64,000 nt of DNA from a virus, in the IMG/VR virus record IMGVR_UViG_3300045988_135886. The stretch is one strand, 5' to 3'. The position numbers were made by a program, and so were the translations under genes. Below are positions 9,950-41,505 of this stretch, in pieces (within the stretch, counting starts at the first letter, position 1; every line of letters begins with the position of its first letter). The notes under the pieces are model-generated. The model worked only from the letters and a program-made list of their open reading frames with translations. It was not told the DNA's origin and made no database searches.

Positions 9950-10870
9950 TTAAAAATTAGGAAGTTTTGGTCTAGCTTTAGTTGTTGCGGCAGAAGCTGC
10001 TGTCTCTGGCTGTTTAGCTTTTGCTTTCTCTTCCTCTAAGCGAACTTCTCTATCAGTAATTGCCTGAGAAATTGCACCAATGTCATATGGTTCTGGAGTT
10101 GGTGTTTCACTATCCTCGCCGTAAGCATCAGAAGCATTTGTAATAATCATCTCATTTTTATAGATAGTTTTCTTCTCAAATCTTGGTTTACCAATTTTTA
10201 CAGGAATTTCTTTTGTGATTTCTGCACGACTATTTACAATATCACCATAGAACTTAACAGTCTGATTTGGTGTATAATCATCTAAAATTGCTTCTGCAAT
10301 TCCATCTTCTGCTGGAGCAACTAAAGTCATTGGTTCAATTCCTGAATAAGTAGGAACCCATCCTTTTACGATAGCACGACCTGTCTCTTCACCTTTATTC
10401 TCGCCAGATGTATAAAGTTCTGGTGTAATAGAAGCAATTGCCATTTCTACTTCAAACCAAGCACGAGGCTCAAATTTCTCTGGATCTCCATCATAACGAT
10501 TAAAAAACATTGTCTGGTAGGAGACACCTACATGCACCTGTTTGTCTTTTCCGACATAAGAGCGAGGTCTGATCTGACCATTTGTAACAGTTACTCTTGT
10601 AGCTGCATCTTTACCAACTTTAGCAATAGACTGATATTCTCTCATTACAGTTTCAATGCCTGCATAACAGCCATTATCTGTACCGTCATTTTTCTTTTCA
10701 TTCACATATACTCTAAATGTTACGAAATTAATGTCTCCTGTCTGCACTGTAATGTCACCACTAATGACTTTTTTACCATCTCTTACTGATTCTTCCAGTG
10801 TGTTTTCGCTTACAATACCAACTACTTCTACTTTTGTGTCTGCCTGTCTTAAATTTGTTTTTTCACTCAT
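9950..10870 (-). CDS. Putative single-stranded DNA-binding protein (uncertain)
   Basis: 306 aa. Position in the replication module. Acidic/Pro-rich tail ending ...KLPNF, like SSB C-terminal tips. The fold cannot be verified by eye. Confidence 0.4.
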   Translation of the reverse strand: MSEKTNLRQADTKVEVVGIVSENTLEESVRDGKKVISGDITVQTGDINFVTFRVYVNEKKNDGTDNGCYAGIETVMREYQSIAKVGKDAATRVTVTNGQIRPRSYVGKDKQVHVGVSYQTMFFNRYDGDPEKFEPRAWFEVEMAIASITPELYTSGENKGEETGRAIVKGWVPTYSGIEPMTLVAPAEDGIAEAILDDYTPNQTVKFYGDIVNSRAEITKEIPVKIGKPRFEKKTIYKNEMIITNASDAYGEDSETPTPEPYDIGAISQAITDREVRLEEEKAKAKQPETAASAATTKARPKLPNF

Positions 10871-10935
10871 AAATAATGTCTCCTCTTATAAATAATATTG
10901 TTTGGTATATTGATAAGCGTTCATGATTGAACGAC

Positions 10936-11127
10936 TTATTCACTAAATCTCATGCTAACTCTATCTAAATATTCTTCATCTGACAGATTAGCGAATCTAA
11001 TAACTGTATATATGCCTTTGCATTCTGGGCATCTATTATTTTTTCTTTCATTCCATTCAAATACTGAAGCACAACGAGTGCACTGGCATAATGTTGTTCG
11101 TGTTTCCATCTCATGCCTCCTCTTCAA
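10936..11127 (-). CDS. Small zinc-ribbon protein
   Basis: 63 aa with CQCTRC...CPEC. Confidence 0.55.
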   Translation of the reverse strand: MKRRHEMETRTTLCQCTRCASVFEWNERKNNRCPECKGIYTVIRFANLSDEEYLDRVSMRFSE

Positions 11128-11881
11128 AGATGCTTCCGCTAATGCCTAAGGCTTCAGCAAGTAGTGTTTTCAGAGGCTCTGATGGATTCTGATCATTCAA
11201 CCATCCTAAATAACTATCTGGAATTTCAGAGAGTGGTTCTCCCTTATGTTTGCCGAATGGCATAAGATATGTTTCTGGTGTAGGTTTGAATTCTTTCATC
11301 AGTTCATCTACTTCAGTTTCATCAAAAGATACTGTTAAATCTTTTCTTGATGCTAAATAATCTGCTAAGTGAACTATCATCTGACCTTTTGTTTCTGGTA
11401 ATGGCAGCTCATCTTTACTTCTTTTATCTGTGTTCCATTCACCCATATGTGAGGCGCAACAGTTTGCAATATAATCCAATTCTTCATCTGGCAACCATTC
11501 AAATCCTTTATAGGATTTTATTCTCTCAGCTATAAGTAACGGGTGTTTAAAAAGAGTATATTGACTGCCATTACGCCCAAGTTTTTCATCATCATGGTTC
11601 ATAATAGCTGTTCGTAGCATATCTCTTTCTCTTGATGTAAACTGACTCTTGATACAATCAATTGACAGCATATGGTTTAAGAATCTAGTTGCCCCTTTTA
11701 CATGTTTAGCAAGTCCCATAAAACCAACTGTATAATCAGGGTGATACTTGTTAGTACTTGAAGCAGACACTTGCCAGAAATATGTAGGCGCAGTATCTAG
11801 TAATTCAATACAAAATTCCTGAATATCATCATTTTCAAATACTTCTAATTCTTCCTTAAAAAATCTCTCTGCTAATGTCAT
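11111..11881 (-). CDS. HD-domain phosphohydrolase with DUF3820-like C-terminus
   Basis: 256 aa. KYHPD...MNHDDEK...HLADYL motifs, and C-terminal KHKGEPLSEIPDSYLGWL. Confidence 0.55.
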   Translation of the reverse strand: MTLAERFFKEELEVFENDDIQEFCIELLDTAPTYFWQVSASSTNKYHPDYTVGFMGLAKHVKGATRFLNHMLSIDCIKSQFTSRERDMLRTAIMNHDDEKLGRNGSQYTLFKHPLLIAERIKSYKGFEWLPDEELDYIANCCASHMGEWNTDKRSKDELPLPETKGQMIVHLADYLASRKDLTVSFDETEVDELMKEFKPTPETYLMPFGKHKGEPLSEIPDSYLGWLNDQNPSEPLKTLLAEALGISGSIFEEEA

Positions 11882-13167
11882 ACAGTTTCCTCCTCAATAA
11901 TTTCTTGTGCCTCTTCCATATCCGGTGTATCAGAGGAATCTTTTATCAATCCTTCAAGGACCTTGAAAGTGAAATTCTTGTGCTTATAAGCCTTAAAGCT
12001 ACTTCTATTATCAATTCTTACAACTACACCTTCTCTAACATGTGTCACCCCTATTGGATCAGGCCCATCATAATATTTTTCCACACGCTCCATAAGATCT
12101 TCTTTAGTAGTAAACAGGAATTTATCAAATTCAGGTACATGTTTAACTCCTAAACGATCACACCAATTCTTTACTTCTTCCCATGGAATCTCTGTAATAA
12201 CTCCATCTTCATTGGTCATAGTCATTCTATAAACATAAATATCAGAAGTACCAGGAGTACACCCATAAGAGAACACTGTTTCATCACCGTAAAGCTTCTT
12301 AACTTCTTTATCTTTAATTTTAGCGTTGGAACAGGTTCCCATAATGGTCTGCTCTGTACCATCAACCCATCCTACAATTTCATAAAATACTTCCATTCCT
12401 TTTGGCAGTCTGTCAATAAAGTAGTCATGATATTTCTGTCTAAATTTATCATTCCCATAGTAACCGCCTTCAAATACAACTCTTCTTGTTCCAGTAACTA
12501 TTTTCCATTCTTTGATAACAGGAGCCGGTCTACAAAAAAGTTTCTGTAGTAGAGTCTTTTTCTTAGTAGTTACTTCTATTGCATTTGCTGTTCGACCAGA
12601 TGTGCCATGCATTTTCAAAGTAATGTAACAAGTATCTCCTGGTTTAAAGGCATTTAAGTTATATGCTAACTGTTCTGTATCAGCATGTTCTTTAAAATAA
12701 GGAAATTTGTTTTTTAAATTTGGAGTTTTTACTTTCGGACCATTGTTAGATTTTTTATGATTTGATCTTGGAATATATTTTTTACAGATAACTGTCCCAT
12801 TAAGTACAGTAATTTGATCTCCTAAAGATAACTTATTTATATCAGTCCATTTGCTAAGAGATTCTACTGGTAAAACCAATCCTTCTGATTTTTCACCTCG
12901 CAGTCTCATAGCTTTAATGTTTCGTTTTACAGGATCAAGATATCCACCTGTAGTTGTTCCATCTTCATTTTTAATACGCAGCAAATTGTTTTCTTTTGCA
13001 AATTCTTCTCCTAGCTGACCATCAACCGGGAAAAATACAACTTTCTGCCCTTCGTAATAACTTAAATCAACAATAACCGTATTTCCAAAAACGGTACCAA
13101 GCTGGAGCCTATCAGCATTGCTGTGTTTACGAAGTTGCTTAAGCTCAGTAATGTAAGCACAATACAT
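11878..13167 (-). CDS. ATP-dependent RNA ligase, DRB0094/Rnl5-like
   Basis: 429 aa. N-terminal ...HSNADRLQLGTVFGNTVIV OB-like module and the lysine nucleotidyltransferase motif LKMHGTSGR. Confidence 0.65.
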   Translation of the reverse strand: MYCAYITELKQLRKHSNADRLQLGTVFGNTVIVDLSYYEGQKVVFFPVDGQLGEEFAKENNLLRIKNEDGTTTGGYLDPVKRNIKAMRLRGEKSEGLVLPVESLSKWTDINKLSLGDQITVLNGTVICKKYIPRSNHKKSNNGPKVKTPNLKNKFPYFKEHADTEQLAYNLNAFKPGDTCYITLKMHGTSGRTANAIEVTTKKKTLLQKLFCRPAPVIKEWKIVTGTRRVVFEGGYYGNDKFRQKYHDYFIDRLPKGMEVFYEIVGWVDGTEQTIMGTCSNAKIKDKEVKKLYGDETVFSYGCTPGTSDIYVYRMTMTNEDGVITEIPWEEVKNWCDRLGVKHVPEFDKFLFTTKEDLMERVEKYYDGPDPIGVTHVREGVVVRIDNRSSFKAYKHKNFTFKVLEGLIKDSSDTPDMEEAQEIIEEETV

Positions 13168-21500: not shown

Positions 21501-24122
21501 TTAGTTACTTCCTTTCTTACAAATTGCTTTTCTAATCCAATCTACAGGCACAACCATAAATGCTGTCACTAAGACTACAATCCACTGTTTAGCATCCATT
21601 GGAGTTGTCTGTACTAGATTTCCTACAAAGTTACACAAAACTACAGTCATTGCAAAAATACCCAATGCGATATACACAAATAATTTGTTATTTTTAATTC
21701 CTTTGAAAAGATTCATACTATCTGTTCTAATAGTGAATCCATTAAATACTGCCATTAGACACAATAAAGCGAATCTCGCTGTCATAGCCGAAAGTTTTGT
21801 TGTAAACATATTTCCAACTGGACCAAATGTAATTACACCAAATAAAGCAATAAATACAATTGAACTTAATGCAATTCTCCCTTTCGCTCCACGGATAAAT
21901 AATCCGGATCCTTTCATGATAGGCTCTTCATTCATATATTCCTCTTTTGGCGGTTCTCCACCAAAGCTTAATGAGTTAAGTGAATCCATGATGATATTTA
22001 CAATAAGGATCTGAACTGCTGCTAATAGAGCAGAGCCACCAGAAATAATTGGAAATACCATACTTAAGATCAACAACGAAATATTGATAGGTAGCTGGAA
22101 TTCAAGGAACATCATAATGTTATGCATAAATGTTCTACCAAGTTCGACTGCCTTTACCACACTTGCAAAATTATTGTCTGTCAAAACAATATCTGCTGCT
22201 TCTTTTGCTACATCAGATCCGTCTTGCATTCCAAAGCCTACATCTGCTTTCTTTAGTGCAGGAGCATCGTTCACACCGTCTCCGGTCATTGCCACAGACA
22301 TTCCAATTTCTTGCGCTAATGTTACAAGACGAAGCTTCGTATTCGGTGAGCATCTGGAAATTACTCTTAACTGTGGAATAATTTCTTTTACTTTTACATC
22401 TGACATTGCCTCAAACTCATCATTGGTAACTGCTAAGTCTCCAGGCTTATAAATGCCAGCTTCCATAGCAACAGCCTTAGCAGTCTCCATACAGTCACCA
22501 GTAATTTCAATTACCTGAATTCCAGCTTTATGAGCAATTTTTACTGCTTCTGGAACTTCATTCCTAACCGGGTCAACAACTCCAATGACTCCAAGGAGAT
22601 TCATTTCATCGGGGAGACCATCATCAGTTTTATCTGAGATAGTCAATGCAATACATCTCATTGCCTTCTCTGTCAATCCCTTAATATGGCTCTTTAAAGC
22701 TTTTCTTTTTTCTTCTGTCAGCTCAGTTGCAATGCCATCATTATCAAGATAAAATTTACACTTCTCAATTAATTTCTCTGGTGCGCCTTTATAAACAGTA
22801 AAATCATTTGCTCCATTATTTAAAGTAACTGCAGAGAATTTATTTTCACTACTAAATGGAACACGTTTTTTCATGATAGCTTTATTCTGTATTTTTTGTG
22901 CATCTTCAGGAGAAAGCATATCAAGCACTGCTCGATCAATTGAATTGCCACCAGTGATATTCCCATTAGAATCAAACACTGCACTATTATTCATACAAAT
23001 GTTTAAATCAATTAGCTCGTTGAGCGGACTTTCCTTATTAAAAATATCCTGACAGTTACCGTTAATCATAACTGTAGAAGTCATTTCACCTGTTGTGAGA
23101 GTTCCTGTCTTATCCGTACAAATTAAATTAACATATGCCAATTCAGGAATTTTACCAGTATTCTTCGCAAGAATATTGAATTTTTCCATTGTCGATACAT
23201 TCTGTTTAGTTACAAGTTTTACAATGAGTGGCAGACCTTCCGGTACAGCCGCAACAATAATTGTTAATGCATTTGAGATATTCTGTGCTACTTTCTGAAT
23301 ATTTTCAAGAATGTTTCCTGAGAAATACTGACTTAAACTTCCAGCATTTAAGATACCTGTAATTGTCATAATTACAAATGCTAATACTGCCGCAATTGTT
23401 CCCCATTTTGAAATAAAATCACACAAATGATCCAGAGCAATATCAAGAGCTGTCTTAGGAGGCTCTAAAGTCTGCATTTTGACAAGAGTATCACCGTTAA
23501 CTGTATTAACACCAACATCTGTAACAATCATTTTTCCTTCACCAGACATAATAACTGTTCCTGCAAAGAGCGAACACTGATCCGTATATGCAGCAGTAGA
23601 TGTTGTTTTAACATGCTTATAATTAGCACTAGGAATTTTTCTACATTCTTTTGTCTCTCCATTGATAGCGGCATTATTAACAGAAATTTCTCCTTCAACA
23701 ATAAAACCATCTGCAAAAATCTCTTGTCCAGTTCTCAATAAAACTAAATCACCTACTACCAGATCATCTTTATTAATTGTCTGTACGCTTCCATCTCGAA
23801 CAACATCACAATATCTAACTGCCGTTTTTGCTCTTAACTCTGCTGCAGATTTCTGTATTCCTAGACCTGTCTTAACAGCAATTTCAGTAACAATAGCTAA
23901 AACTACTATAATCATTACAGGTTCAGAAAGAGCCATTACTCCCATAGCTCCTAGAACTAACTGGAATAAAGCAATTATTATTAGAATCATAGTAATTGGC
24001 TCAGTTAATGCTTCCTTAGCAAAATGATACCATTTTTTCAATTCAGGTTCCGGAAGCTTATTACTTCCATATGTAGTCCTACTAACCCCTACTTCGCTAC
24101 TTTTTAATCCATTAAAATTCAT
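21501..24122 (-). CDS. P2-type cation (Ca2+)-transporting P-type ATPase
   Basis: 873 aa. CTDKTGTLT, TGDGVNDAPALKKADVG and VPEGLP in the TM4 region. No CPC or N-terminal CxxC heavy-metal motifs. Confidence 0.9.
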   Translation of the reverse strand: MNFNGLKSSEVGVSRTTYGSNKLPEPELKKWYHFAKEALTEPITMILIIIALFQLVLGAMGVMALSEPVMIIVVLAIVTEIAVKTGLGIQKSAAELRAKTAVRYCDVVRDGSVQTINKDDLVVGDLVLLRTGQEIFADGFIVEGEISVNNAAINGETKECRKIPSANYKHVKTTSTAAYTDQCSLFAGTVIMSGEGKMIVTDVGVNTVNGDTLVKMQTLEPPKTALDIALDHLCDFISKWGTIAAVLAFVIMTITGILNAGSLSQYFSGNILENIQKVAQNISNALTIIVAAVPEGLPLIVKLVTKQNVSTMEKFNILAKNTGKIPELAYVNLICTDKTGTLTTGEMTSTVMINGNCQDIFNKESPLNELIDLNICMNNSAVFDSNGNITGGNSIDRAVLDMLSPEDAQKIQNKAIMKKRVPFSSENKFSAVTLNNGANDFTVYKGAPEKLIEKCKFYLDNDGIATELTEEKRKALKSHIKGLTEKAMRCIALTISDKTDDGLPDEMNLLGVIGVVDPVRNEVPEAVKIAHKAGIQVIEITGDCMETAKAVAMEAGIYKPGDLAVTNDEFEAMSDVKVKEIIPQLRVISRCSPNTKLRLVTLAQEIGMSVAMTGDGVNDAPALKKADVGFGMQDGSDVAKEAADIVLTDNNFASVVKAVELGRTFMHNIMMFLEFQLPINISLLILSMVFPIISGGSALLAAVQILIVNIIMDSLNSLSFGGEPPKEEYMNEEPIMKGSGLFIRGAKGRIALSSIVFIALFGVITFGPVGNMFTTKLSAMTARFALLCLMAVFNGFTIRTDSMNLFKGIKNNKLFVYIALGIFAMTVVLCNFVGNLVQTTPMDAKQWIVVLVTAFMVVPVDWIRKAICKKGSN

Positions 24123-24124
24123 TC

Positions 24125-25159
24125 TTAAATCTCTCCTAATACAATTCTTTCATTGACAGACATTACAAACTCTTCTATAGCTTTATAATTTGGTTTATCA
24201 GGCAATGAGGTATTCTTTGAATCATACTCAAGTCTTTTCTCTAACTCGTTTACCATTTCAAAAAATTCTGGGATAGGCTGACTGTTTGCATCCAAATATT
24301 CTCCATTACGTAGAGCCATAAGAAGCTCATGATCATCTTCTCTATATGTAATAATTTTGCCTTTTTCAAGAATATCAAAACACATAAGATACAATCTCAC
24401 TAAATGGCACATATGCTTTCCTAGCTTATTATGTTCTATGGCATGTCTGTTTCTTTTTCCAACTTTAGAGTAATCCTTAACAATATTTTTCATTTCAGCC
24501 CACATCCCCTGATAATCATTCAAAGGATAGTGCTTCAACTGGATATCCATAAATACTTCTGTTTCATAATCTTCCTGAATACCTTTATCTACATAAAGCT
24601 TTATTGCATCTTCTGGAAAATTGAAATACTTTTCAGGGAAAGTATAAAAAGCATTCATAATACTATTAAGAACATGCTGCATTCTTTCTTCTTGCCCTAG
24701 CTTTCTAGCAGCTTTATTATCAAGCCTTCTTAGCTGGCTTGTAGCATAGCCTCCAAAAGAATAGATCGCTTTCTTAGATAAAAACATTTCAGCATTATCA
24801 AGAAGTTCTTGACCAATTGGATGAATATAAAGATAATGTTCCGGCTTCAATCCTATCAGCTCAATTGTGTTTGGGTTGCAGTTTGACAATAGAGTTATCA
24901 ATTTATTAAAAGAATAGATTGTTGTATCTGTTGTTTCTTCCGTTACCTGATCAAAATTATGTGTAGGAATCAGGATTTCTTCTCTTTTATTTAAAGCACA
25001 ACCCCTAATATCCAGATCGGAGCTTTCTGTATCTGTACCATAAGCATGAGACCCACCTAAGCCTAATAGAATTATGTTGCTCCCCAGGTGCTCGTCCGCT
25101 CTTAAGAAATCATAATGTTCACTTTTCAACAACTTCTTGATTTTCTCTATCTTCATCAA
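24125..25159 (-). CDS. Pol-beta superfamily nucleotidyltransferase (RlaP/YcgL-like)
   Basis: 344 aa. GLGGSHAYGTDTESSDLDIRG motif and the helical C-terminal KHMCHLVRLYLM segment. Confidence 0.65.
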   Translation of the reverse strand: MMKIEKIKKLLKSEHYDFLRADEHLGSNIILLGLGGSHAYGTDTESSDLDIRGCALNKREEILIPTHNFDQVTEETTDTTIYSFNKLITLLSNCNPNTIELIGLKPEHYLYIHPIGQELLDNAEMFLSKKAIYSFGGYATSQLRRLDNKAARKLGQEERMQHVLNSIMNAFYTFPEKYFNFPEDAIKLYVDKGIQEDYETEVFMDIQLKHYPLNDYQGMWAEMKNIVKDYSKVGKRNRHAIEHNKLGKHMCHLVRLYLMCFDILEKGKIITYREDDHELLMALRNGEYLDANSQPIPEFFEMVNELEKRLEYDSKNTSLPDKPNYKAIEEFVMSVNERIVLGEI

Positions 25160-25637
25160 TTTCTCCTGTTGAATAATAATAATTTACTATATCGTCTAAG
25201 TTCCTTATCTCTTTTTCTAACTCTGCACACTTTTTCTTGCTATCACATGCCCATAACTGTTTTCGTAGCTTCGTTGCAACCTCAGATACCTTTTCTGCTT
25301 CTTCTGTTTTATCAATGGTTTCTATGACATCAACTTCAATTGGTTCTCCGCAAAATGGACAGAATTTAAGAGGGTAATAATAGTCTTCAGGCCATGTATC
25401 TTCCCAGTCTTGGACTTCTTCGCTTACGTAAAAGAAAATTCCAAAAGTTTCATCAGTTTTATAGTCACAACCATGGCATTCTATAGTTTCACAAGTTCTA
25501 CATAAATAGTTATCAGGATATTCATTAGAAATAACTATCCTAGGATTCTCTTCCAATGCTTTGCAACAGAATTTAGGTTTATAATATTTATAAGATGTGC
25601 TCCTATCTACAATTATTTGCTTTGCTTTTATTTCCAT
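25119..25637 (-). CDS. Cys-rich hypothetical protein
   Basis: 172 aa. CRTCETIECHGCDY and FCPFCGE motifs. Confidence 0.5.
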   Translation of the reverse strand: MEIKAKQIIVDRSTSYKYYKPKFCCKALEENPRIVISNEYPDNYLCRTCETIECHGCDYKTDETFGIFFYVSEEVQDWEDTWPEDYYYPLKFCPFCGEPIEVDVIETIDKTEEAEKVSEVATKLRKQLWACDSKKKCAELEKEIRNLDDIVNYYYSTGEIDEDRENQEVVEK

Positions 25638-25646
25638 GTTTACACC

Positions 25647-26030
25647 TCAGATAATCTGTAAGTTTTCATCACCAATAAGCCATGCAGAATCTAAAATAAA
25701 ATTTTCATATGGATCACCATTGTCATTCCAGAACTCATCCGATCCAACCTCCCAATCGCCCAATGTTCCAGCATTAAAGTTACCGTATAAATAATCTGCC
25801 ACATATTCTAAAAACGCATCTGCAGCCTTATCATAATCTTCTTTTCTTATTAACTCTTCTACATCCGGCTCAAGATCAATCCATTTATGCTGTTCAATCA
25901 AAAAAGATTTAGCGTTGTCTCTTACTTTCAGCAGTGAGTTTTTAATGTCTGTCAATGTTGCATCTTTCTTTTTTGCAATGATATAACTTGAAGACGAACT
26001 ATTAGTAACAAATCCTCTTCTTATTTTCAT
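25647..26030 (-). CDS. NSSSSS-family acidic protein, paralog 1
   Basis: MKIRRGFVTNSSSSSYII N-terminus. The rest is Asp/Glu-rich. Confidence 0.6.
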   Translation of the reverse strand: MKIRRGFVTNSSSSSYIIAKKKDATLTDIKNSLLKVRDNAKSFLIEQHKWIDLEPDVEELIRKEDYDKAADAFLEYVADYLYGNFNAGTLGDWEVGSDEFWNDNGDPYENFILDSAWLIGDENLQII

Positions 26031-26425
26031 TAACCATCTCTCCCTTCTCCTTCAGCAACTTCTATATCAGCAAATCCATTTACTTCCGTAATAGCATCTA
26101 TTGCTTCATTCATAGAGAAATCATAATCATATACAGCATCACCCCATTCATCATAATAAGCATCGTTCCTGTCCTCAATTACGATATATTCTCCATCAGG
26201 GTGCTTTTCTAAAATGTCATCAACTCCATAAATGACCGCTCCGCACCAACTAGCACCAAGCTCACCGGACCAGTTTCTTTCATCATTTACACCAGTGACA
26301 TCTAATACATCAAGATTGAACTGATCAATTATCTTCTGAGCTTTTTCTTTGTCAGCAATCCTTGCAAAGCAAATAATGAAACTGCTAGAGCTTGAATTAG
26401 TAACAAATCCTTTCCGTATTTTCAT
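26030..26425 (-). CDS. NSSSSS-family acidic protein, paralog 2
   Basis: MKIRKGFVTNSSSSSFII N-terminus. Strongly acidic C-terminal half. Confidence 0.6.
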   Translation of the reverse strand: MKIRKGFVTNSSSSSFIICFARIADKEKAQKIIDQFNLDVLDVTGVNDERNWSGELGASWCGAVIYGVDDILEKHPDGEYIVIEDRNDAYYDEWGDAVYDYDFSMNEAIDAITEVNGFADIEVAEGEGRDG

Positions 26426-26437
26426 GAGCCCTCCTTT

Positions 26438-26626
26438 CTAGTGGCTCTCGCCACTAGATTTCTTATTCCACTTAGGTTTATCGACTTTTATTTTATTTAC
26501 ATGTTTAGAGAATGCAAGTGACTTCTTAGACTGCTTCATTCCATGTTTAACCATCCTAGTATGTTTCTTTCCATTTTTATCTACTTTTGTCTCATACTCT
26601 TTGTTCCAGGAATTCTTTGATCTCAT
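26438..26626 (-). CDS. Small highly basic protein
   Basis: 62 aa, Lys-rich. Confidence 0.4.
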   Translation of the reverse strand: MRSKNSWNKEYETKVDKNGKKHTRMVKHGMKQSKKSLAFSKHVNKIKVDKPKWNKKSSGESH

Positions 26627-26627
26627 A

Positions 26628-27776
26628 TTACATGTCCTCCATTGAATAAATTACTCTTTCTAAACTTCTTTTTGATTTGAAACACTTCTTAAGTAAACAC
26701 CACATAATGGCTTTTTCAGTATCATCTTCGTCTTCCCAATCATTTAAGACTACAGAAGTCTGTGTTCCATCTTTGAATCCTACAGTAGTTCTAATTTTCC
26801 CTGTAGCAATATCTTTTGTTCTTCCTACAAATGAAATATCATCTTTAGACAATGTTTTATAAACACGTTTATCAAAATCATCTTTAGATATAATGTATAC
26901 ATCAACGCCTAAAGCCTCTTTAATTTGACGTTCACAGCTCCTAAACTCTTTATCGAGTGCATGCTTATGATTAATAGTTTCTTGAGCCTTCTCTAAAGCT
27001 ACAGCAATATCTTCTGGTGAGCAACAATATGTCATATTATTATCCTCCTTGTAATTGAAATACGGCATTGGTTTCATTTTAAACTTATTTTTTGTATGTA
27101 AACGATCAATCCGTCTTTTAATTTCCGGATCATCGCAAATACCTGTACGAATATATCTATCTAATACTGCATAGGTAAATCCGAAGTTATCTTCATCTGA
27201 TTTACCGCATAACCCATCTGATGGTGTTTTCTCTACATATTTTTTAGGTAATCCTAAGTAATAACCGATTCTTTTTACTTCACTCTTTGTGAACTGTGCC
27301 AATGGAGCAAAGTCTCCTGCTGAGTCACCATATCTAGTGGAGTATCCGATGTAATCCTCACTAAGGTTACATGTATTAACCACTCTTCCATTGTGTGACT
27401 GCGATACCCCGTATAGAGTGGCCATTCTTAGTCTAGGAGCGAGATTAATTAATGTCTGATCTGTTACATTAAATGCAGCATCAATTTGATCAATAATATC
27501 ATCATAAGCTGATCCAATATTAATAGTAAGATAATCAATGTTTAATACATGCTGGCAAATATCATAAGCCACACAAATATCATCCTGTTTATAATTTGGC
27601 ATAATTACTCCAAGAACCTTGTCAGCTCCAATAGCTTCTACACATAACTCAGCAGCCACTAAAGAATCAACACCACCGGAGATACCTACTATAAAATTAC
27701 ATCCTGGGCCGTTCTCTTCTCTCCAATCTCTAATCCACTGAATACAATCATTTGTTGCTTTTTCTACATTAAACAT
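26628..27776 (-). CDS. nadE: NAD+ synthetase (NadE-like PP-loop ATPase) fused to a C-terminal domain of ~130 aa of unknown function
   Basis: 382 aa. GISGGVDSLVAAELC PP-loop. The NadE-like region covers about 250 aa; the remainder (from MTYCCSPEDIAVALE...) has no recognisable motif. Confidence 0.8.
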   Translation of the reverse strand: MFNVEKATNDCIQWIRDWREENGPGCNFIVGISGGVDSLVAAELCVEAIGADKVLGVIMPNYKQDDICVAYDICQHVLNIDYLTINIGSAYDDIIDQIDAAFNVTDQTLINLAPRLRMATLYGVSQSHNGRVVNTCNLSEDYIGYSTRYGDSAGDFAPLAQFTKSEVKRIGYYLGLPKKYVEKTPSDGLCGKSDEDNFGFTYAVLDRYIRTGICDDPEIKRRIDRLHTKNKFKMKPMPYFNYKEDNNMTYCCSPEDIAVALEKAQETINHKHALDKEFRSCERQIKEALGVDVYIISKDDFDKRVYKTLSKDDISFVGRTKDIATGKIRTTVGFKDGTQTSVVLNDWEDEDDTEKAIMWCLLKKCFKSKRSLERVIYSMEDM

Positions 27777-28269
27777 TCTGCTCCTCCAATTTCCACAATT
27801 CTACTTTAAAACTACTTAATTCTTCTTCTATAATCTTATAAACCACTTCCCAGTCTGCTCCTCCTCTTCCGCAGCCTATTTTGTATGGGAGTGCAATGGT
27901 TGTCTTATGAGGCCTGTTATCAGCATCAAACCAATAAACAGGTATTTGTTGTTGAATGAAATTTAATCCTTCTCGAAAAGCTTTAACATCAGTATATTGT
28001 TTCCCATCATATTCGTATTTATCTTGTGCAAATAAGGATAATATTCCTTGATTTTTCCTTCTGATAAAGTATTCGTCATATGTTCCAAGAAGTAATTCTG
28101 GATTAAACTCACGTAATTTACAGACGTTTCTATAATGTATATAAATACCTTCGTCATAATCTCTTAATGCTTTAGCAACTCCAGTATTCATTTTTCCTTG
28201 GCAATTAACTTGATGAATTATATAGTCGGTCTGCGCATCTACAATGTTACCTTCAATAATTTTAATCAT
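27769..28269 (-). CDS. Macro-domain protein (ADP-ribose binding/hydrolase)
   Basis: MIKIIEGNIVDAQTDYIIHQVNCQGKMNTGVAKAL...IGCGRGGADW. The start is moved to the second Met to remove the overlap with the upstream ORF. Confidence 0.75.
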   Translation of the reverse strand: MIKIIEGNIVDAQTDYIIHQVNCQGKMNTGVAKALRDYDEGIYIHYRNVCKLREFNPELLLGTYDEYFIRRKNQGILSLFAQDKYEYDGKQYTDVKAFREGLNFIQQQIPVYWFDADNRPHKTTIALPYKIGCGRGGADWEVVYKIIEEELSSFKVELWKLEEQNV

Positions 28270-28279
28270 AAATCTTTTC

Positions 28280-28687
28280 CTATAAATCCTGAAATGTAAA
28301 CTTCTCGCCACAGGAGCAAATCACTTCTCCAATAGTTCCTATTGATGTTGGTGTAAAGCACCATGTAAGAGAACCGCCTATGCAACCATGTCCCATTGCT
28401 CTCTGTTTAGAAGTTTTCAGACCATGTTTCTCAGCATCATGTTTTAATTCCCACTCTCTGATTTTCTCTTGTTCTTTTTCTGAAATTGGAAATCCTCTAT
28501 ATAAATCGTCTTTTGCTTCTTTTAACTCAGCTTCCATTCTTTGCATTTCAGAATCTTTATAATGCTCATCTTTGAGCTTCTTGTTTTCTTCTTCTAAGTA
28601 TTTAATTCGTTTTTCATAAGTGTCTACTTTATCAACAATCCCCTGACAAAGATCTGAAACTGAATCAGTAAAATATGTACTACTCAT
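28280..28687 (-). CDS. Hypothetical coiled-coil protein with a Cys/His C-terminus
   Basis: 135 aa. GHGCIGG...CSCGEKF. Confidence 0.5.
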   Translation of the reverse strand: MSSTYFTDSVSDLCQGIVDKVDTYEKRIKYLEEENKKLKDEHYKDSEMQRMEAELKEAKDDLYRGFPISEKEQEKIREWELKHDAEKHGLKTSKQRAMGHGCIGGSLTWCFTPTSIGTIGEVICSCGEKFTFQDL

Positions 28688-28704
28688 TTTTTATACCTCC
28701 ATAT

Positions 28705-29178
28705 CTACTCCATAAATGATGAAACATGTACGGTTACAAAATCACTATGTGCACGAATATAATCCAAAGTTTTAACTGTATCTTCTACAATTGCAATCTG
28801 AGATGGCTTAAGTCCGAGCTTTTGTTGCAGCGTTTGAAGCACAGTAAGTTTTTCTGTCTTTTCTAAAGTGAAATAGATATTATCATCTGGCAGATCATAA
28901 TTGTCTTTTATAAAAGCTCTTTTACCAGGAATTTCATTTAAAGGACTCTTTGAACAGGTATATACTTTATTCACGCCTTTATTCTGAATAAACTCCTGCA
29001 TTAATTTGATCGGACGCACATCTTTATACGGATTCTCACCGGAAGCTACAAGTCTGTCCCATTCATCGTCAGTCATACTATGACTTAATTCAGAAAACTC
29101 ATACGGAGCAAGTACTCCATCTACATCCATTACTACAATCACATCATCTTTTAATAAATAATCTGTAATTTTACTCAT
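28705..29178 (-). CDS. HAD-superfamily hydrolase (nucleotidase-like)
   Basis: 157 aa. VVMDVDGVLAP DxDG motif. Confidence 0.55.
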   Translation of the reverse strand: MSKITDYLLKDDVIVVMDVDGVLAPYEFSELSHSMTDDEWDRLVASGENPYKDVRPIKLMQEFIQNKGVNKVYTCSKSPLNEIPGKRAFIKDNYDLPDDNIYFTLEKTEKLTVLQTLQQKLGLKPSQIAIVEDTVKTLDYIRAHSDFVTVHVSSFME

Positions 29179-30646
29179 CTTTGTTTCTTCCGTTTAATCT
29201 GTCTCTGATTTCTTTAAATATTTCTGTATGATATATTTCACCGTCTTTAAATACAGTTTTTAATGCCCCATCATAAACAAAGCTGTCATATCCATCTCTG
29301 CACCTTAATTCTCCATTTTCATCGTAATATACATGACAACATCCTTTATGAGATTTCTTTAAATGGCTTACATCTGTCTTTGGATCTTTGTAAATCATAA
29401 TCGGTTGTCCGTTAACTTCTCCAAATGTAGCTTTCATAGCAATGCCGAACATATCTCTGGTTACAACGACCATACGTCCATCAGGTTCTACAACTGCCGA
29501 GAAACAAAAAGCCCCAACTCCAAATACAATGTTGTTTGCAGCGAATCCTTTCTTCTCAAGTTCTTCCCATACCTTTTTTACATTGTTAAGAGTACAGCCA
29601 TCACCATAGATAATTCCAATATGAGGGTCCAGTACTTTGTAACCTTTGCTATTTACTGATCCTTTAAATGTATTCCAGAGTTTTTCGATAGTCTTAACTG
29701 AAATCTCTACCATATCACCAGAATCCGGACGAACCAAGAGCTTACCATTGTGCTGCATAATTTCTTTTTTGCAAGCTGGAAGAATATTGTCAATCATGTT
29801 CCAGTAATCATATGTATCAGATACCATGCTGAAAGATGCATTCGGATATAATTCTGTAAGTAGTCTTTTCACAAATGTAATTTCGTCTCCGTCCACAGCA
29901 TAATTTGAAGCCATGACCGCATGTTCGGTAGAAATCGCACCAATTCCAATATGACTCACGCTACAGTCATTGAAATAATATTTGTCCAAATAATCAATTG
30001 CCGGGATCGTACTTGTCTTATCAAAGGATAATAGCCAAGCAACGGAGCATCTCTCTGCTTCTTCCATACAGGACATTCCACGCATTCCAAAGTCTGAGCA
30101 GGCCATTTCAGGTCTTAAAATGTCGTCGCAGGTCTTTTTATAGTAGAAATTTGCCAGTTCTCTGTACATATGTCCAATTGTTGCATGAGCACACGGCTTC
30201 CAAAGCTCAACCTGCAGAATACACTCAATCCACTGCACAACCCATGCAAAATCTGGATGTGTATTCGTGATTTCAATGCATGGCACTCCCATAGGCACTA
30301 ATGTACCTTCCGGCAATGCACGGATCTGAATCGGAAGATACCCTAATTCGTGAAGTTTAAGGATTGGAGAAATATCGTAATTTCCTTCTCCTAACTGAAT
30401 GTCCATACTAATTGTATAAAGTTCTTGAACTTCATCAGTGCTTAATTTAAAGAAATCTCTTTTAAAATATGTAATAAGATATTCTTTAATAAAAGCCTGC
30501 AGTCCGAAGAAAACCATATGATCCTGCTCCTTTAACATTGATCTTCTCGGAGTCCAATAAGAGACTAACTTCGTCAATCCTCTCGGAAACATATTGTGGT
30601 GTACTTGTTTGTAAGTATCGCTTAACAGAATTGCTAAGGTATCCAT
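29171..30646 (-). CDS. NAMPT-family phosphoribosyltransferase (nicotinamide PRTase or NARP1 Namat-type)
   Basis: 491 aa. LLSDTYKQVHH, DFGMRG, VRPDSGD, IIYGDG, KDPKTDVSHLKKSHKG motifs. Confidence 0.85.
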   Translation of the reverse strand: MDTLAILLSDTYKQVHHNMFPRGLTKLVSYWTPRRSMLKEQDHMVFFGLQAFIKEYLITYFKRDFFKLSTDEVQELYTISMDIQLGEGNYDISPILKLHELGYLPIQIRALPEGTLVPMGVPCIEITNTHPDFAWVVQWIECILQVELWKPCAHATIGHMYRELANFYYKKTCDDILRPEMACSDFGMRGMSCMEEAERCSVAWLLSFDKTSTIPAIDYLDKYYFNDCSVSHIGIGAISTEHAVMASNYAVDGDEITFVKRLLTELYPNASFSMVSDTYDYWNMIDNILPACKKEIMQHNGKLLVRPDSGDMVEISVKTIEKLWNTFKGSVNSKGYKVLDPHIGIIYGDGCTLNNVKKVWEELEKKGFAANNIVFGVGAFCFSAVVEPDGRMVVVTRDMFGIAMKATFGEVNGQPIMIYKDPKTDVSHLKKSHKGCCHVYYDENGELRCRDGYDSFVYDGALKTVFKDGEIYHTEIFKEIRDRLNGRNKDE

Positions 30647-36644: not shown

Positions 36645-37745
36645 TTACACTGTATAATGCAATTCTCTACTTTTTGTTCTTACAAAAGTCATATATGCTG
36701 GTTTCATTTCTTTGATGATCTTTTCATCTTCTTCATCATTGTAGTAATTATCATTTTCTAATTTAATATCATTTCCAGATACATAAATGATGCCTTTCTT
36801 ATGATCAAACTCACAATCAAGAACCTTACAAGAAGCATCTACATAAGTTCCTTTAAAGCAGAATTCCGGTTCAATCCTTGCACTCTTATCAAAGAAATCA
36901 ATGGTCAATTTTGTGGTTGCCTCAGAACCATCTTCAAGATGTAGAGTGACTTCATATATAATACTGTTTAAATTAATAATATTTAGATCTTTGATTGCTA
37001 TCTCAAAAGGCTCCCCAAAATTCAACTCGAATGCGATTGCTCTTAAACAATCATAGTTTAAATCTACTTTGTGAGCAAAAGAAATTACTTTTTCAATTTC
37101 GCTGTAATACTGTTTATCCAACTTGTCTTCTAAGTATTCTGTAATTTCAACATCTGACGGATACTCAAATCTAAAATGATAGTGAAATCTTCCAGGTCTG
37201 TTTACTAAATAACTATTTAACGAGTTGAGGTCATTACAAGTAATCACAAACATTTTCTTCCCTTGAGACAATCCATCAAACAATGTAAGCATTTCTGTTT
37301 GAGGATCTGCCATGCCATCAGCAGCTTTAATACTACCAAATGTTTTATCAAATTCATCGAACAACACCATTACTTCCTGTTCAATTTCTTCAATAAAGCT
37401 TGCAATTCCAGGAATATACGTGTCTACAATGATAACTGGTAAACCAACTTTTGTTGCTTCCACAGCCAATGTCTTTGCAAACAATGATTTGCCGATTCCT
37501 TTATTGCCTGACAGGATAACGCCAAGGTTCTTTTCTGCTTTTGGGAAAGCTTTAAGAACTTTTTCAACCTTACTCATATGTACTCCGTAGGTTTTTTCTT
37601 TGATTTCTATGTCTGCATATTTTTCTAAAAAGAAACCAGAATTCTTTTGAAACCTCACGACATAATTCTGAGCCGGAAGCTTGTCGAAAGTTTCTAATGA
37701 ATCGTCGTAAGTTCTAAATGTGTTTCCTACCTTAATAATTCTCAT
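36645..37745 (-). CDS. Classical AAA+ ATPase with a C-terminal domain of unknown function
   Basis: 366 aa. Walker A GNKGIGKS, Walker B VLFDEFD, NRPGRFHYHF second region of homology. Confidence 0.8.
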   Translation of the reverse strand: MRIIKVGNTFRTYDDSLETFDKLPAQNYVVRFQKNSGFFLEKYADIEIKEKTYGVHMSKVEKVLKAFPKAEKNLGVILSGNKGIGKSLFAKTLAVEATKVGLPVIIVDTYIPGIASFIEEIEQEVMVLFDEFDKTFGSIKAADGMADPQTEMLTLFDGLSQGKKMFVITCNDLNSLNSYLVNRPGRFHYHFRFEYPSDVEITEYLEDKLDKQYYSEIEKVISFAHKVDLNYDCLRAIAFELNFGEPFEIAIKDLNIINLNSIIYEVTLHLEDGSEATTKLTIDFFDKSARIEPEFCFKGTYVDASCKVLDCEFDHKKGIIYVSGNDIKLENDNYYNDEEDEKIIKEMKPAYMTFVRTKSRELHYTV

Positions 37746-37785: not shown

Positions 37786-38691
37786 TCAATGCCCTTTAAC
37801 ATCTGCTTCATGTAATAGCATCACATCTGAAAACATCTGTTTTCCAATTAAATACTTATCTTTATTCTTTGCCTTGTTTGATTGTGACCATGATAAATAG
37901 GGATGCATATGATAATAAATCAAATTTGCTGTATAAAAAGCATCATATATATCTTTTCCTGTAAGTGCACCGGAAAAATCAAAACATGTTAAACATTCAT
38001 AAGCTCCAACACAATGATGCTGATAATAGTGACAGTAATCATCCTCTTCACCTTTTCCATTAATTCTTGATTTAGTGAAAAGCTTTCCAATATCATGGAG
38101 ACAGGCCGCCACCCATAAATTTTTTTCTTCTCTAGGTACTCCTTCTGAAACCTTTTTCAAATGTTTATAAAGAGTAAGAGAATGATGTGGATTCTCTTGA
38201 TCGAAGTCACGAGCCATATCTATTAATTCTTTTATATCTTTATGATCATCTTGTACAACTCTAATTTCATTGAACCCTTCATGGTACATTGGTGGAGAAA
38301 ATACTTTCCTCATTCTTGTAATCACTTCGTCTGGAACTGAATTTTCCCTTTTTGAGTTGTCCTTTAAACATTTTTCATACGTTTTCAAAAACATAATACA
38401 TGTTTTATAAACATGTTTAGGAACTCCTTTTAAAAAATGCACTCTTCTTTTCTTTACCAAATTAGTAGCATCATAAATAACCGAATGCATTTTCAAATCT
38501 TCCAGTATTCTACGATGCAGTTCTTCAAATACTTTACTGTTGTCTGCGTCATCATAATTATCTCCATACATTTCTTCTCTGAGTTTATCAGAAGAGTGCA
38601 CTATATAATCAGGATGAGTTTCTGAATACTCTTTAGCCCATGTACTTTTACCGGAAGCAGGTAAACCTACCAGCATAATTAATTCATTCAT
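37786..38691 (-). CDS. Polynucleotide-kinase-like P-loop domain fused to an HD phosphoesterase (Pnk-HD end-healing enzyme candidate)
   Basis: MNELIMLVGLPASGKSTWAKEY Walker A; C-terminal AACLHDIGK HD motif. The ATG at 38691 has a GAGGAG SD and a TAATG overlap with the upstream gene. Confidence 0.65.
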   Translation of the reverse strand: MNELIMLVGLPASGKSTWAKEYSETHPDYIVHSSDKLREEMYGDNYDDADNSKVFEELHRRILEDLKMHSVIYDATNLVKKRRVHFLKGVPKHVYKTCIMFLKTYEKCLKDNSKRENSVPDEVITRMRKVFSPPMYHEGFNEIRVVQDDHKDIKELIDMARDFDQENPHHSLTLYKHLKKVSEGVPREEKNLWVAACLHDIGKLFTKSRINGKGEEDDYCHYYQHHCVGAYECLTCFDFSGALTGKDIYDAFYTANLIYYHMHPYLSWSQSNKAKNKDKYLIGKQMFSDVMLLHEADVKGH

Positions 38692-39326
38692 TATGTAATC
38701 TCCTCTATTTCTTTGCAAATCTTCTCTGCTATTTCTTTAGATATGTACTTCTGATTAAAAAACTCTTGTCCAATATCTGATCTAATTCGATATTTTTGAT
38801 TATCTAAATTAGGCCTCCCTTCCCCGTTTACAATTTGAGGTAATGAAGCTGTCTGAAGATAATCTATATAATATAGATCTTCTTTTATACTTCTTCGTTT
38901 CTCTCTAATTGCTTTTTTTATTTTATAGGCCCAATATCCAGAAGTAACATTCAGTTTATTAAATTCTATATAGTGATCAAGATCCTGAGATATAAGCTCC
39001 AGTTCCTTTAGCTGTTTTTCTAAAGGTTTTCTATTACCTAATATTTCTTTAATAGGCAATATGCTGTCATCTATTTTCTTTTTATAATCACCAATCTCTA
39101 CAAGAGATTTATTCTGCTGTACAAAACCAACTCTCTCATCAACTGATGTTACTTTCCAAGGGGCGTATATGCTTAAATTTTTAGGAATTGTTGATATCCT
39201 GTTTAAAGCTTTCGGTACATTGTCAAACTTCTGAGCAGATTTTAAATCCACCACATGAGGAGGACTTCCATGTTTAAACACCAAATAATTTCCAGGATAT
39301 TTTTCACTTTCTAAAACATATCTCAT
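38691..39326 (-). CDS. Hypothetical protein downstream of the tandem strong promoters
   Basis: 211 aa with no recognisable motif. Confidence 0.5.
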   Translation of the reverse strand: MRYVLESEKYPGNYLVFKHGSPPHVVDLKSAQKFDNVPKALNRISTIPKNLSIYAPWKVTSVDERVGFVQQNKSLVEIGDYKKKIDDSILPIKEILGNRKPLEKQLKELELISQDLDHYIEFNKLNVTSGYWAYKIKKAIREKRRSIKEDLYYIDYLQTASLPQIVNGEGRPNLDNQKYRIRSDIGQEFFNQKYISKEIAEKICKEIEEIT

Positions 39327-39442: not shown

Positions 39443-39471
39443 AGTATACCATAGTCATTCTACCTTGTCAA
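39443..39471 (-). promoter_or_regulatory. Sigma-70-type promoter P2
   Basis: TTGACA (39466-39471), 17 nt, TATACT (39443-39448). The -35 overlaps the last ligA codons. Confidence 0.6.
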
Positions 39472-41505
39472 CACTTTTTTTACAAACTTGTTTAAAAATT
39501 CTTTTTCTGAAATTATCGGGATACCAAGCTGCATAGCTTTCACATTCTTGCTACTCTTTGACAATGTATCATTATTAATAAGGTAGTTAGTTTTTTTAGT
39601 TACTGATCCTGTGACTTTACCTCCAAGAGACTCTATTTTCTCTACTAGAGCTGCTCTATTGGCAAACTCGGTGAGTGTCCCAGTAATACAGAATATTGCC
39701 CCATTCAAAACATCTTTTACCGTCTCCTGAGAAATTTCTTCAAACTGGAATTCCGCAGCAAGCTCAGTTATGTATCTTTGATTTTCTTCAAAATAATTTT
39801 TCAAAGAAGAAGCTTTCGCAAAACCAAAGTCTTCCAAACATGTAAAATCATACTGAGAATCCATATCTTTAATAAAGCTATCAAAAGCTGTTTTTAACCC
39901 TTTTTCTCTTGCTCTCTTCTCTTCAACAATGTTTAGCTGCTTACTAACACTTCGACCGATTAAAGGTATGGACAGCCCATAAAGGAATTTAGGCAGAGTT
40001 GTCTTGCGGCATTTTTCTATTGATTCCAGGATTTTATCAACCTTTTTTGCTCCTAGCCCTTGTAATGTCACTAACATTCCCCGGCAGTCTTTTAGATAAA
40101 ATAAGTCTAAAGGCCCTTTAATAAATTCTTTCTCTATTAATAGACTCAGAGTAGATTTAGAAAGCCCTGTAATATCATGTGCTTCTTTGCTTACAAAAGT
40201 ACATAATTCACCAAGAAGTTTCCCTTTACATTCAAGGTTCATGCACTGAAGCTCTTCTGTCTCATTTTCACCTGTAATTTTTACATGACCACCACAAATA
40301 GGGCACTTGTCAGGCACAGTAAACAATTTATCACTGTTTCTGGTCAGATTCTCTGCAATCTGCGGAATGATCATATTTGCTTTATATACAGTGATCGTAT
40401 CTCCTACTGACAGTTCATAACTTTTGAAAATACTCACATTATGTAAGCTAGCTCTTTCAACAATAGTATCATCTATTTCAACCGGATCAAAAACTGCCAC
40501 AGGTGTCAACTGTCCAGTCTTTCCCATGCTCCATTCCACATCTCTAATTACTGTTTCAAACTTATCATCTGCAAATTTATATGCCAATTGTGATCGAACA
40601 TGATGTGATGTGTTTCCTAAGCTTTCACTATAATCAATATCATCATATGAAAATACGATTCCATCAATAGGAACATCTTTTTCTCTTGCGGTTTTTCTAA
40701 GTTCTTTAATATTCTCTTCAATATTATCAACTTTTACCCAAGGGACCACTTCAAATCCTAACAGATCTAATATCTGTAATCTTTTCATGAAACTATTTCC
40801 ATCTATTCCACGAACGGCCTTCCAAGCAATGAACTTGATTTTTCTTTCTTTTGTAACGGAGTTATCAAGCTGTCTAACAGAGCCAGCAGTTAAATTTCTG
40901 ATATTCTTAATACCATTATCTTTAATATATTTTTCTAATTCTTCACCAAAAAGTCCCTTTCTTTCTCCATCTTTTTTCAGATCAATATCTTTTAGCTCTT
41001 TAAGATAAGTATAATGATGGATTTCCATGACAGCTTCTCCATCAACTACTACTTCATCTTTATAAGGAATTTCCTTTGGAAGATTTACAAAACTGTTTGC
41101 TGTATGTAAAACATTCTCTCCGATGATTCCATTCCCTCTAGTTTCTGCAGCAACCAATTTACCATCTATATATTTTACTGAAATAGTAAGCCCATCCATT
41201 TTTAGCATGGCTAATCCTGGCAAACCATTCATAAAACTTTCAACTTCATTTATATCCTTTGTTTTGTCTAAGGACAACATTGGATGATCATGTTCGACTT
41301 TTTCTAACTCACTAACTGTTTCTGAGCCAACATTGATAGTGGGACTGTTGGCTAAAATAATACCTGTAACTTTCTCAAGTTCTTTAAGTCGATCATATTT
41401 TTTATCATATTCATAATCAGAAATTAGAGAAGTATCTTCCATATAATACGCATGAGCATATATATTTAATTCTTCCACTAATTCACGCATTTCTTTTAAA
41501 AGCAC
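39460..41505 (-). CDS. ligA: NAD+-dependent DNA ligase
   Basis: 681 aa. Ia domain (SDYEYDKKYDRLKELE), adenylation motif LKMDGLTISVKY, C4 zinc finger CPICGG...C..C, C-terminal BRCT. Confidence 0.9.
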   Translation of the reverse strand: MLLKEMRELVEELNIYAHAYYMEDTSLISDYEYDKKYDRLKELEKVTGIILANSPTINVGSETVSELEKVEHDHPMLSLDKTKDINEVESFMNGLPGLAMLKMDGLTISVKYIDGKLVAAETRGNGIIGENVLHTANSFVNLPKEIPYKDEVVVDGEAVMEIHHYTYLKELKDIDLKKDGERKGLFGEELEKYIKDNGIKNIRNLTAGSVRQLDNSVTKERKIKFIAWKAVRGIDGNSFMKRLQILDLLGFEVVPWVKVDNIEENIKELRKTAREKDVPIDGIVFSYDDIDYSESLGNTSHHVRSQLAYKFADDKFETVIRDVEWSMGKTGQLTPVAVFDPVEIDDTIVERASLHNVSIFKSYELSVGDTITVYKANMIIPQIAENLTRNSDKLFTVPDKCPICGGHVKITGENETEELQCMNLECKGKLLGELCTFVSKEAHDITGLSKSTLSLLIEKEFIKGPLDLFYLKDCRGMLVTLQGLGAKKVDKILESIEKCRKTTLPKFLYGLSIPLIGRSVSKQLNIVEEKRAREKGLKTAFDSFIKDMDSQYDFTCLEDFGFAKASSLKNYFEENQRYITELAAEFQFEEISQETVKDVLNGAIFCITGTLTEFANRAALVEKIESLGGKVTGSVTKKTNYLINNDTLSKSSKNVKAMQLGIPIISEKEFLNKFVKKVLTR
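39476..39494 (-). repeat. Copy 3 of the 19-nt motif, directly upstream of the P2 -35 (inside the ligA 3' end)
   Basis: Identical 19-mer. It also encodes ...LNKFVKK of LigA. Confidence 0.7.

Follow-up and report, generated by a model that had tools for sequence, protein, structure and literature searches.

A constant N-terminal tag on otherwise dissimilar phage and bacterial proteins is encoded beside one clade of radical-SAM/SPASM enzymes

Why do five proteins of one virus, otherwise without recognisable resemblance to each other, begin with the same sixteen residues? The question is raised by IMG/VR record IMGVR_UViG_3300045988_135886, a viral DNA of 64,000 nucleotides (“the window” below means this whole stretch), in which five open reading frames (ORFs) start with M-K-[IL]-R-x-G-F-V-T-N-S-S-S-S-S-[FY]. 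We find that this N-terminal sequence, here called the tag, belongs to a very large family which reaches beyond phages and is also present in bacteria and on plasmids, and that the tag family and one clade of radical S-adenosylmethionine (radical-SAM) enzymes with a SPASM domain constitute a conserved gene module. A gene of that clade lies in the same window and is the near-obligate genomic partner of the tag; it was missed by the original prediction, which had been made from the letters of the window and had singled out the five ORFs.

Tag genes and a radical-SAM/SPASM gene

A six-frame regular-expression scan of the 64 kb finds the motif on exactly five ORFs, all on the minus strand and each carrying it at residue 1, with no sixth copy elsewhere in the 64 kb. 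The five tag proteins (W1 to W5) and the candidate partner enzyme are:

25647-26030, minus strand: W1, 127 residues, begins MKIRRGFVTNSSSSSY; matches PHROG 7397 at E=6e-5
26030-26425, minus strand: W2, 131 residues, begins MKIRKGFVTNSSSSSF; subfamily C-terminus G-x-G-R-[DN]-G
48894-49643, minus strand: W3, 249 residues from a TTG start; Cys-rich body with 14 Cys; C-terminus ...SEYSCNHMG
50495-50953, minus strand: W4, 152 residues; C-terminus ...AISHH, of the SHH-end subfamily; matches PHROG 7397 at E=6e-6
50950-51222, minus strand: W5, 90 residues; subfamily with “LTxEQIEKIKNH...MDNFDM..FL..IGV”
54597-55661, minus strand: radical-SAM/SPASM enzyme, 354 residues; Pfam SPASM at E=1.5e-5

We compared the ORFs of the window with 16 diverse tag-bearing viral loci. 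Only the SPASM ORF at 54597-55661 recurs broadly: 10 of the 16 have a homolog with 37-98% identity adjoining the tag, in most cases as the gene immediately upstream. The other window genes found there, an RNA ligase and a kinase-like ORF, are confined to two loci. In the window itself, 3.4 kb separate the enzyme gene from three paralogs downstream of it, W3, W4 and W5.

Searches that start from the enzyme lead to the tag. Among 251 relatives of the enzyme in IMG/VR, 51 loci outside the window's own phage group were examined, and 47 of them have between one and eight tag ORFs, all on the strand of the enzyme. These begin no more than 2.4 kb downstream of the enzyme in 43 of the 47 loci, the other four having a tag ORF just upstream; of the four loci without a tag ORF, three offer less than 500 bp of downstream sequence. 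The bacterial test used the best 80 of 414 relatives, in species-representative genomes: a tag ORF is present at 73 of these 80 loci, with the strict motif in 66 and with variants, which include NSSSVS, NSSSYS, NSSSSN and NSSDSS, in seven. A divergent clade of the enzyme behaves in the same way, with a tag gene 31-409 nucleotides downstream in 21 of 23 viral loci; its usual single partner is a protein of the SHH-end subfamily, to which W4 belongs. Combined, 141 of 154 enzyme loci carry same-strand tag genes.

The arrangement of the module differs between phages and bacteria. In phages the enzyme typically precedes an array of one to eight tag genes; locus L049 has eight in a row, among them a homolog of W2 (49% identity). 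Just downstream of that array are an RNA-ligase homolog (49% identity), an ORF of ~272 residues and a homolog of window ORF 37786-38718, a co-location which may reflect shared synteny. The bacterial layout is typically one tag gene of ~124 residues which ends at the start codon of the enzyme, and it occurs in Lachnospiraceae, Oscillospiraceae, Erysipelotrichaceae, Selenomonadaceae and Anaerolineaceae. Across 33 bacterial loci the tag gene and the enzyme are the sole conserved genes, joined in 14 by an upstream ORF of ~109 residues (XRE-like in L168, the sole locus in which it was read). As the flanks of the pair are variable, it is a self-contained cassette.

The cassette is also found on the Agrobacterium tumefaciens plasmid pAt2, where a 131-residue protein beginning MKIKLDFVSNSSSTSF is encoded 4 nucleotides upstream of a canonical radical-SAM/SPASM gene. 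This copy (L221, NZ_CP048524.1 24051-35040) adjoins a SMEK-domain gene and a site-specific integrase, neighbours which may point to a mobile or conflict-island context. A Hungatella metagenome-assembled genome (L164) has the enzyme and a 262-residue tag protein as a single ORF of 621 residues (9986-11851); its sister assembly L167 has two genes there, 9986-11065 and 11062-11850, overlapping by 4 nucleotides. A natural fusion or a frameshift error would account for the single ORF.

Judged by its conserved residues, the partner looks like a functional enzyme of the radical-SAM/SPASM superfamily. The cluster motif of the window enzyme is expanded to C51-x7-C59-x6-C66 and the GGRGD motif is kept; these three Cys are found in 124-126 of 126 homologs, and the C-terminal SPASM Cys at positions 248, 268, 286, 324, 327, 333, 337 and 346 in at least 124 of the 126. 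The divergent clade, and the L055 and Agrobacterium homologs, have the canonical C-x3-C-x2-C instead. The two clades also differ in the tags that they accompany: the C-x7-C-x6-C clade pairs with R at tag position 4 and the C-x3-C-x2-C clade with K4.

At 90% identity the enzyme has matches in more than 5,000 clusters, which carry generic names only. None of the named SPASM maturase families of NCBIfam is reached (best 32 bits, against a curated cut-off of 380); the weak matches are to W-cofactor maturase, MftC, NirJ2, PqqE, GeoRSP, StsB and anSME. The PDB sequences matched by the enzyme profile are SkfB, BtrN, PqqE and anSME, the last of them marginally in both collections (E=0.06 in NCBIfam, 0.03 in the PDB). 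PADLOC v2 returns for the enzymes only a generic radical-SAM-core match to pVip models. The closest relatives in cultured phages (INPHARED) are 28% identical and come from T4-like RB16, RB43 and Miro. This radical-SAM protein, with C-x7-C-x2-C, is carried by the T4-like phages RB16, RB43, Miro, Miller and Lw1 (about 170 records), and the neighbouring and downstream genes of the RB16 copy (L140, HM134276.1 90403-91557) have no NSSSSS tag.

The tag, its family and the bodies behind it

The five ORFs are all present on the minus strand as originally predicted, and the start codons of two of them were corrected. A Shine-Dalgarno-like GGAG or GAGG stands 6-10 nucleotides 5' of each of the five start codons. 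W3 had been given a GTG start at 49652; it most likely starts at the TTG at 49643, because a ribosome-binding site is found there and the resulting protein fits the family. The position of the ribosome-binding site likewise sets the start of W4 at the ATG at 50953, not at 50968. The stop codon of W2 overlaps the start of W1 (TAATG, 26030) and that of W5 overlaps the start of W4 (ATGA, 50950-50953), overlaps which suggest translational coupling within each tandem pair.

It had been noted that the five serines are encoded by different codons in each copy and that the motif is kept at the level of the protein. This is confirmed across 256 distinct family genes, in which both the AGY and the TCN codon boxes are used at every one of the five Ser positions; the first 54 nucleotides of the window's five paralogs are identical at only 35-42 of 54 positions in pairwise comparison. 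The codon diversity indicates that selection acts on the protein rather than on a DNA repeat, and it rules out a DNA repeat or low-complexity artefact as the origin of the motif.

A family profile built from the first 40 residues (39 positions) matches 16,663 representative clusters at 50% identity at E<=1e-3, 68 of them at E<=1e-10. The 149 best representatives are 33-288 residues long and the tag begins at residue 1 in 134 of them. K2, R4, F7, V8, [T/S]9, N10, S11-S15 and [F/Y]16 are invariant or nearly so in this set, and the wider family has the consensus M-K-[IVL]-[RK]-x-[GD]-F-V-[TS]-N-S-S-S-[ST]-[ST]-[FY]; one peptide that carries the tag is MKIRKGFVTNSSSSSFIL. The distinct members that we collected are about 60-493 residues long, with a median of 140 and a maximum of 493. 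G6 is the less constant position, with D, S or E in its place in 29 of the 159 motif windows. These replacements, together with a SPASM partner that is not a PflA-type activase, led us to reject a glycyl-radical site, which the resemblance of R-x-G-F to RVxG[FY] had brought into consideration.

Annotation of the family is all but empty, in line with the original statement that no known family could be assigned. Pfam, NCBIfam and PADLOC give no real match for the five paralogs or the 149 representatives; the stray Pfam matches among the representatives (GATase_3, Ribosomal_L18p and others) concern one member each and look like chimeric assemblies. The sole family match is PHROG 7397, “unknown function”, which is hit by all five paralogs at E values from 6e-6 to 1e-2. 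The alignments fall largely within profile positions 1-30, reaching as far as position 55 in W4 and 91 in W3, and this PHROG, itself without functional annotation, spans only part of the diversity of the tag family. PADLOC v2 run on the tag proteins yields one marginal match only, of the 124-residue protein of L168 to PDC-M01B (E=0.001), and PDB sequence searches with W3 and with the W5 subfamily profile return nothing below E=0.8. In a DNA and protein search of cultured phages (INPHARED), neither the window region nor W4 had a relative, and nothing relevant was found in the literature on the motif string and on phage SPASM systems.

The part of each protein that follows the tag, its body, is acidic as the original prediction had it: D and E make up 18-26% of the paralogs, against 15% in the other ORFs of the window, and their pI values are 4.1-4.7. 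BLAST of the bodies assigns the five paralogs to five different subfamilies. That of W1 consists of ~126-residue proteins in which an “NFK” motif is common in the C-termini, and includes an ortholog (P0119) with 94% identity to W1; the “NHMG” type of W3 has about 250 residues; and the SHH-end subfamily of W4 is the commonest body among the distinct motif proteins collected. Several subfamilies keep a C-terminal end of their own: ...SCNHMG in the W3 type, ...[IF]SHH in the W4 type and ...G-x-G-R-[DN]-G in the W2 type. Between the five subfamilies hhalign gives probabilities below 2%, and the bodies have thus diverged beyond recognition, as had been claimed. Most pairs of body subfamilies are still without detectable homology by hhalign when deeper alignments are used, the exceptions lying within the SHH-end group and between the 124-residue bacterial type and a 143-residue type. 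The bodies found across the tag family are mostly small and acidic; at other loci the tag is joined to BspA-type leucine-rich repeats (LRR) or to tandem BRCT domains.

An AlphaFold model of W5 from 75 diverse homologs (predicted local distance difference test score, pLDDT, 82.8; predicted template-modelling score 0.72) has residues 1-11 (MKLRIGFVTNS) outside the fold and at pLDDT below 50. Residues 13-19 (SSSFAIA) form strand 1 of a small predicted beta-alpha-alpha-beta-beta-alpha-beta body of ferredoxin-like type, for which Foldseek against the PDB and BFVD reports generic ferredoxin-like similarity only, with no match at E<=1e-3. The model suggests an exposed N-terminal tail, which would be accessible. 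For W3, a shallow alignment gave a model with a pLDDT of 34, which is unusable.

What the enzyme might do with the tag

We consider it probable that the co-encoded radical-SAM/SPASM enzyme both recognises its protein targets by the tag and modifies them there, and that one such maturase matures many otherwise dissimilar proteins. The flexible N-terminal tail with the tag would enter the active site of the enzyme and be modified there post-translationally, which would allow one enzyme to mature a whole set of bodies without detectable mutual homology. Two candidate chemistries present themselves. Hydrogen abstraction at the C-beta of Ser, Thr or Asn could lead to an aromatic-to-C-beta cross-link: SPASM enzymes are known to make cross-links from Phe-C4 to the C-beta of Ser or Asn (i, i+2) (PMC11002830), and F7-V8-[T/S]9, invariant or nearly so in the tag, fits this Phe(i)-x-Ser(i+2) cyclophane pattern of the triceptide maturases in sequence. 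Alternatively, a Ser might be oxidised to give an aldehyde, as happens when formylglycine is formed. It would then fall to the variable bodies, acidic in the window and including LRR or BRCT elsewhere, to bring the modified head to different targets, which for the phage are probably host proteins early in infection.

The same gene linkage would also be explained if the tag remained unmodified and served as a docking handle or adaptor, with each body bringing a different target to the enzyme in the way that F-box proteins do for a shared ligase. The protein-binding modules LRR and BRCT are among the bodies, phage arrays supply many tag proteins per enzyme, and tag position 4 co-varies with the enzyme clade, all of which suits such a handle. 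Characterised SPASM enzymes, however, act on the peptide or protein that is encoded next to them (PMC11002830); five invariant Ser between invariant aromatics resemble a reaction site more than a docking peptide, and a single small partner of 124 residues suffices in bacteria. We therefore regard the docking handle as unlikely, though it survives better than the alternatives below.

As a substrate of a maturase, the tag has both precedents and peculiarities. The logic of a SPASM enzyme with a neighbouring motif-bearing target is already known. Like the radical-SAM/SPASM peptide maturases (the triceptide three-residue cyclophane-forming enzymes MscB and XncB, SkfB, PqqE and MftC), the partner combines a radical-SAM core with a Cys-rich SPASM domain and is encoded directly beside genes which share a short motif, one enzyme serving several substrates. 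Unlike theirs, its putative substrates are folded proteins of about 60-490 residues rather than short peptides, and the tag is conserved at the extreme N-terminus as the likely reaction site and not as a leader before a variable core. The module also differs from those systems in having no recognition element, protease or exporter of the kind found with RiPPs (peptides that are ribosomally synthesised and then modified after translation), in missing the curated cut-offs widely and, for the window enzyme, in the expanded C-x7-C-x6-C cluster motif. Set against classical RiPP precursors, the tag proteins share the adjacency to an enzyme and a conserved recognition sequence, but they are longer (the median noted above), have a folded body and come without a leader protease or exporter in the cluster.

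A further parallel is anSME/AtsB, which oxidises Ser to formylglycine in the case of anSME. This enzyme is likewise minimal, with radical-SAM and SPASM parts in about 350-370 residues and no recognition domain, and it modifies Ser or Cys within a short motif of full-length proteins, several proteins being served by one maturase. The C/S-x-P/A-x-R motif of the sulfatases on which anSME acts is absent from the tag F-V-T-N-S-S-S-S-S-F, and no sulfatase Pfam match was obtained.

A tag exactly at residue 1 of unrelated bodies could also be a sorting or fate signal which sends them to the capsid, to secretion or to regulated proteolysis, the enzyme being linked for some other reason. The internal proteins of T4, some of which have anti-restriction roles, are the nearest example: with their capsid-targeting sequence, they too are diversified small phage proteins which share only a short N-terminal sequence. 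The phage arrays of diversified small acidic proteins and the low-confidence tail of the W5 model, consistent with flexibility, would accord with a signal of this kind. Unlike for the T4 proteins, however, no linkage of the tag genes to head or protease genes was seen here, and the tag is present, with a radical-SAM gene, in bacterial chromosomes and plasmids, where the pair stands alone (on the Agrobacterium plasmid as well) and no capsid or secretion genes are conserved nearby. The tag has no evident cleavage-site pattern or signal-peptide-like hydrophobic core, and the near-obligate linkage to the enzyme would be left unexplained. A sorting signal thus appears distinctly improbable.

Least probable of all is what the original prediction had proposed, that the strand and Ser run form an autonomous catalytic or phosphate/nucleotide-binding loop, or a nucleophile motif, in a common, highly diverged fold: the invariant K2, R4 and Ser run could bind an anion and the conserved extreme C-termini (SHH, NHMG, GRNG) might complete a site, but residues 1-11 are placed outside the confident part of the W5 model, Foldseek yields only the generic similarity mentioned, no relative was found in Pfam, NCBIfam or PDB sequences, no common active-site scaffold is detectable in bodies that lack detectable mutual homology and include LRR and BRCT, and the linkage to the enzyme is again unexplained.

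Several observations weigh against the tag as the substrate of a co-encoded maturase. The association is incomplete in both directions: L050, L052, L053 and L056, from the tag-first search, have no enzyme within the fetched flanks, and L134, L188, L198 and L216 have an enzyme but show no tag gene, although the sequence around it is sufficient. Within the window, the enzyme gene is about 28 kb away from W1 and W2. Inspection of sequence and alignment reveals no recognisable RiPP recognition element in the enzyme, whose cluster motif follows after only ~45 residues. Across the 33 bacterial loci the module lacks a conserved protease or exporter and is therefore not a classical RiPP pathway. Thirteen near-invariant residues exceed the need of most known maturase recognition sites, gene adjacency cannot tell which protein acts on which, and a single subfamily, that of W5, was modelled with confidence.

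If the tag is indeed the substrate of the maturase, a wider proposal becomes possible, which we advance tentatively: the module would be an unrecognised protein-tagging system, in which the enzyme equips a portable tag of 16 residues with a chemical group (a cross-linked cap or reactive aldehyde, for instance), with large phages maturing arrays of acidic, LRR or BRCT proteins against host factors or defences and bacteria keeping a mobile cassette with one substrate. A role in anti-defence or host takeover is plausible, given that the genes lie in the early region, that the bodies are acidic and that fusions to LRR and BRCT exist. The paralogs may also be an arsenal of inhibitors or DNA mimics, as the original prediction supposed. 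No annotation in Pfam, NCBIfam, PADLOC or PHROG covers the pair of tag and enzyme, and we found no paper that describes it. What sets it apart from known systems is the constant tag at the extreme N-terminus, the folded bodies, the tandem arrays in phages and the lack of a protease or exporter in the module.

Should the maturation of tags hold true, the tag proteins (about 10^4 clusters at 50% identity) would be among the largest uncharacterised substrate families of radical-SAM/SPASM enzymes, and the enzyme would be unusual in acting on folded proteins by way of a constant N-terminal tag and not on short peptides. In large gut phages, hundreds of early genes without annotation would then become approachable together through the tag, and their products may serve in host takeover or anti-defence. 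New enzyme chemistry could also emerge, along with a genetically encodable pair of tag and enzyme for site-specific protein modification.

Genes around the module in the window

Among the other products encoded in the window, which derives from a large phage of gut Clostridia, are DNA polymerase III alpha, a DnaB-like helicase and a protein with a P22 antirepressor domain. W1 and W2 had been described as lying upstream of a nicotinamide adenine dinucleotide (NAD) island; on the coding strand the pair is in fact downstream of the NAD synthase gene. The island (26628-30646, minus strand) comprises that gene, whose product has an extra C-terminal region of ~140 residues (26628-27776), a NAMPT-like phosphoribosyltransferase (29171-30646, minus strand) and several unannotated ORFs between the two. 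An NAD-dependent DNA ligase is encoded at 39460-41505. Between the NAD synthase gene and W2 is a basic, very lysine-rich ORF of 62 residues (26438-26626, minus strand).

Immediately downstream of W1, a 172-residue Cys-rich ORF (25119-25637, minus strand) has an acidic tail and no Pfam match; its several Cys pairs (CC, CxxC) could form zinc-ribbon-like sites. A DUF5688 protein (E=7e-47) is encoded directly downstream of W3 (47934-48875, minus strand).

The remaining neighbours, all on the minus strand, include an RNA ligase (11878-13167), an RlaP-like nucleotidyltransferase of the RNA-repair DNA polymerase beta family (24125-25159) and a 366-residue AAA/nSTAND3-like nucleoside triphosphatase (36645-37745). 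An 873-residue P-type cation-transporting ATPase (21501-24122, minus strand), with E1-E2 ATPase, Cation_ATPase_N/C and HAD domains, stands out as unusual cargo in what otherwise looks like a large phage genome.

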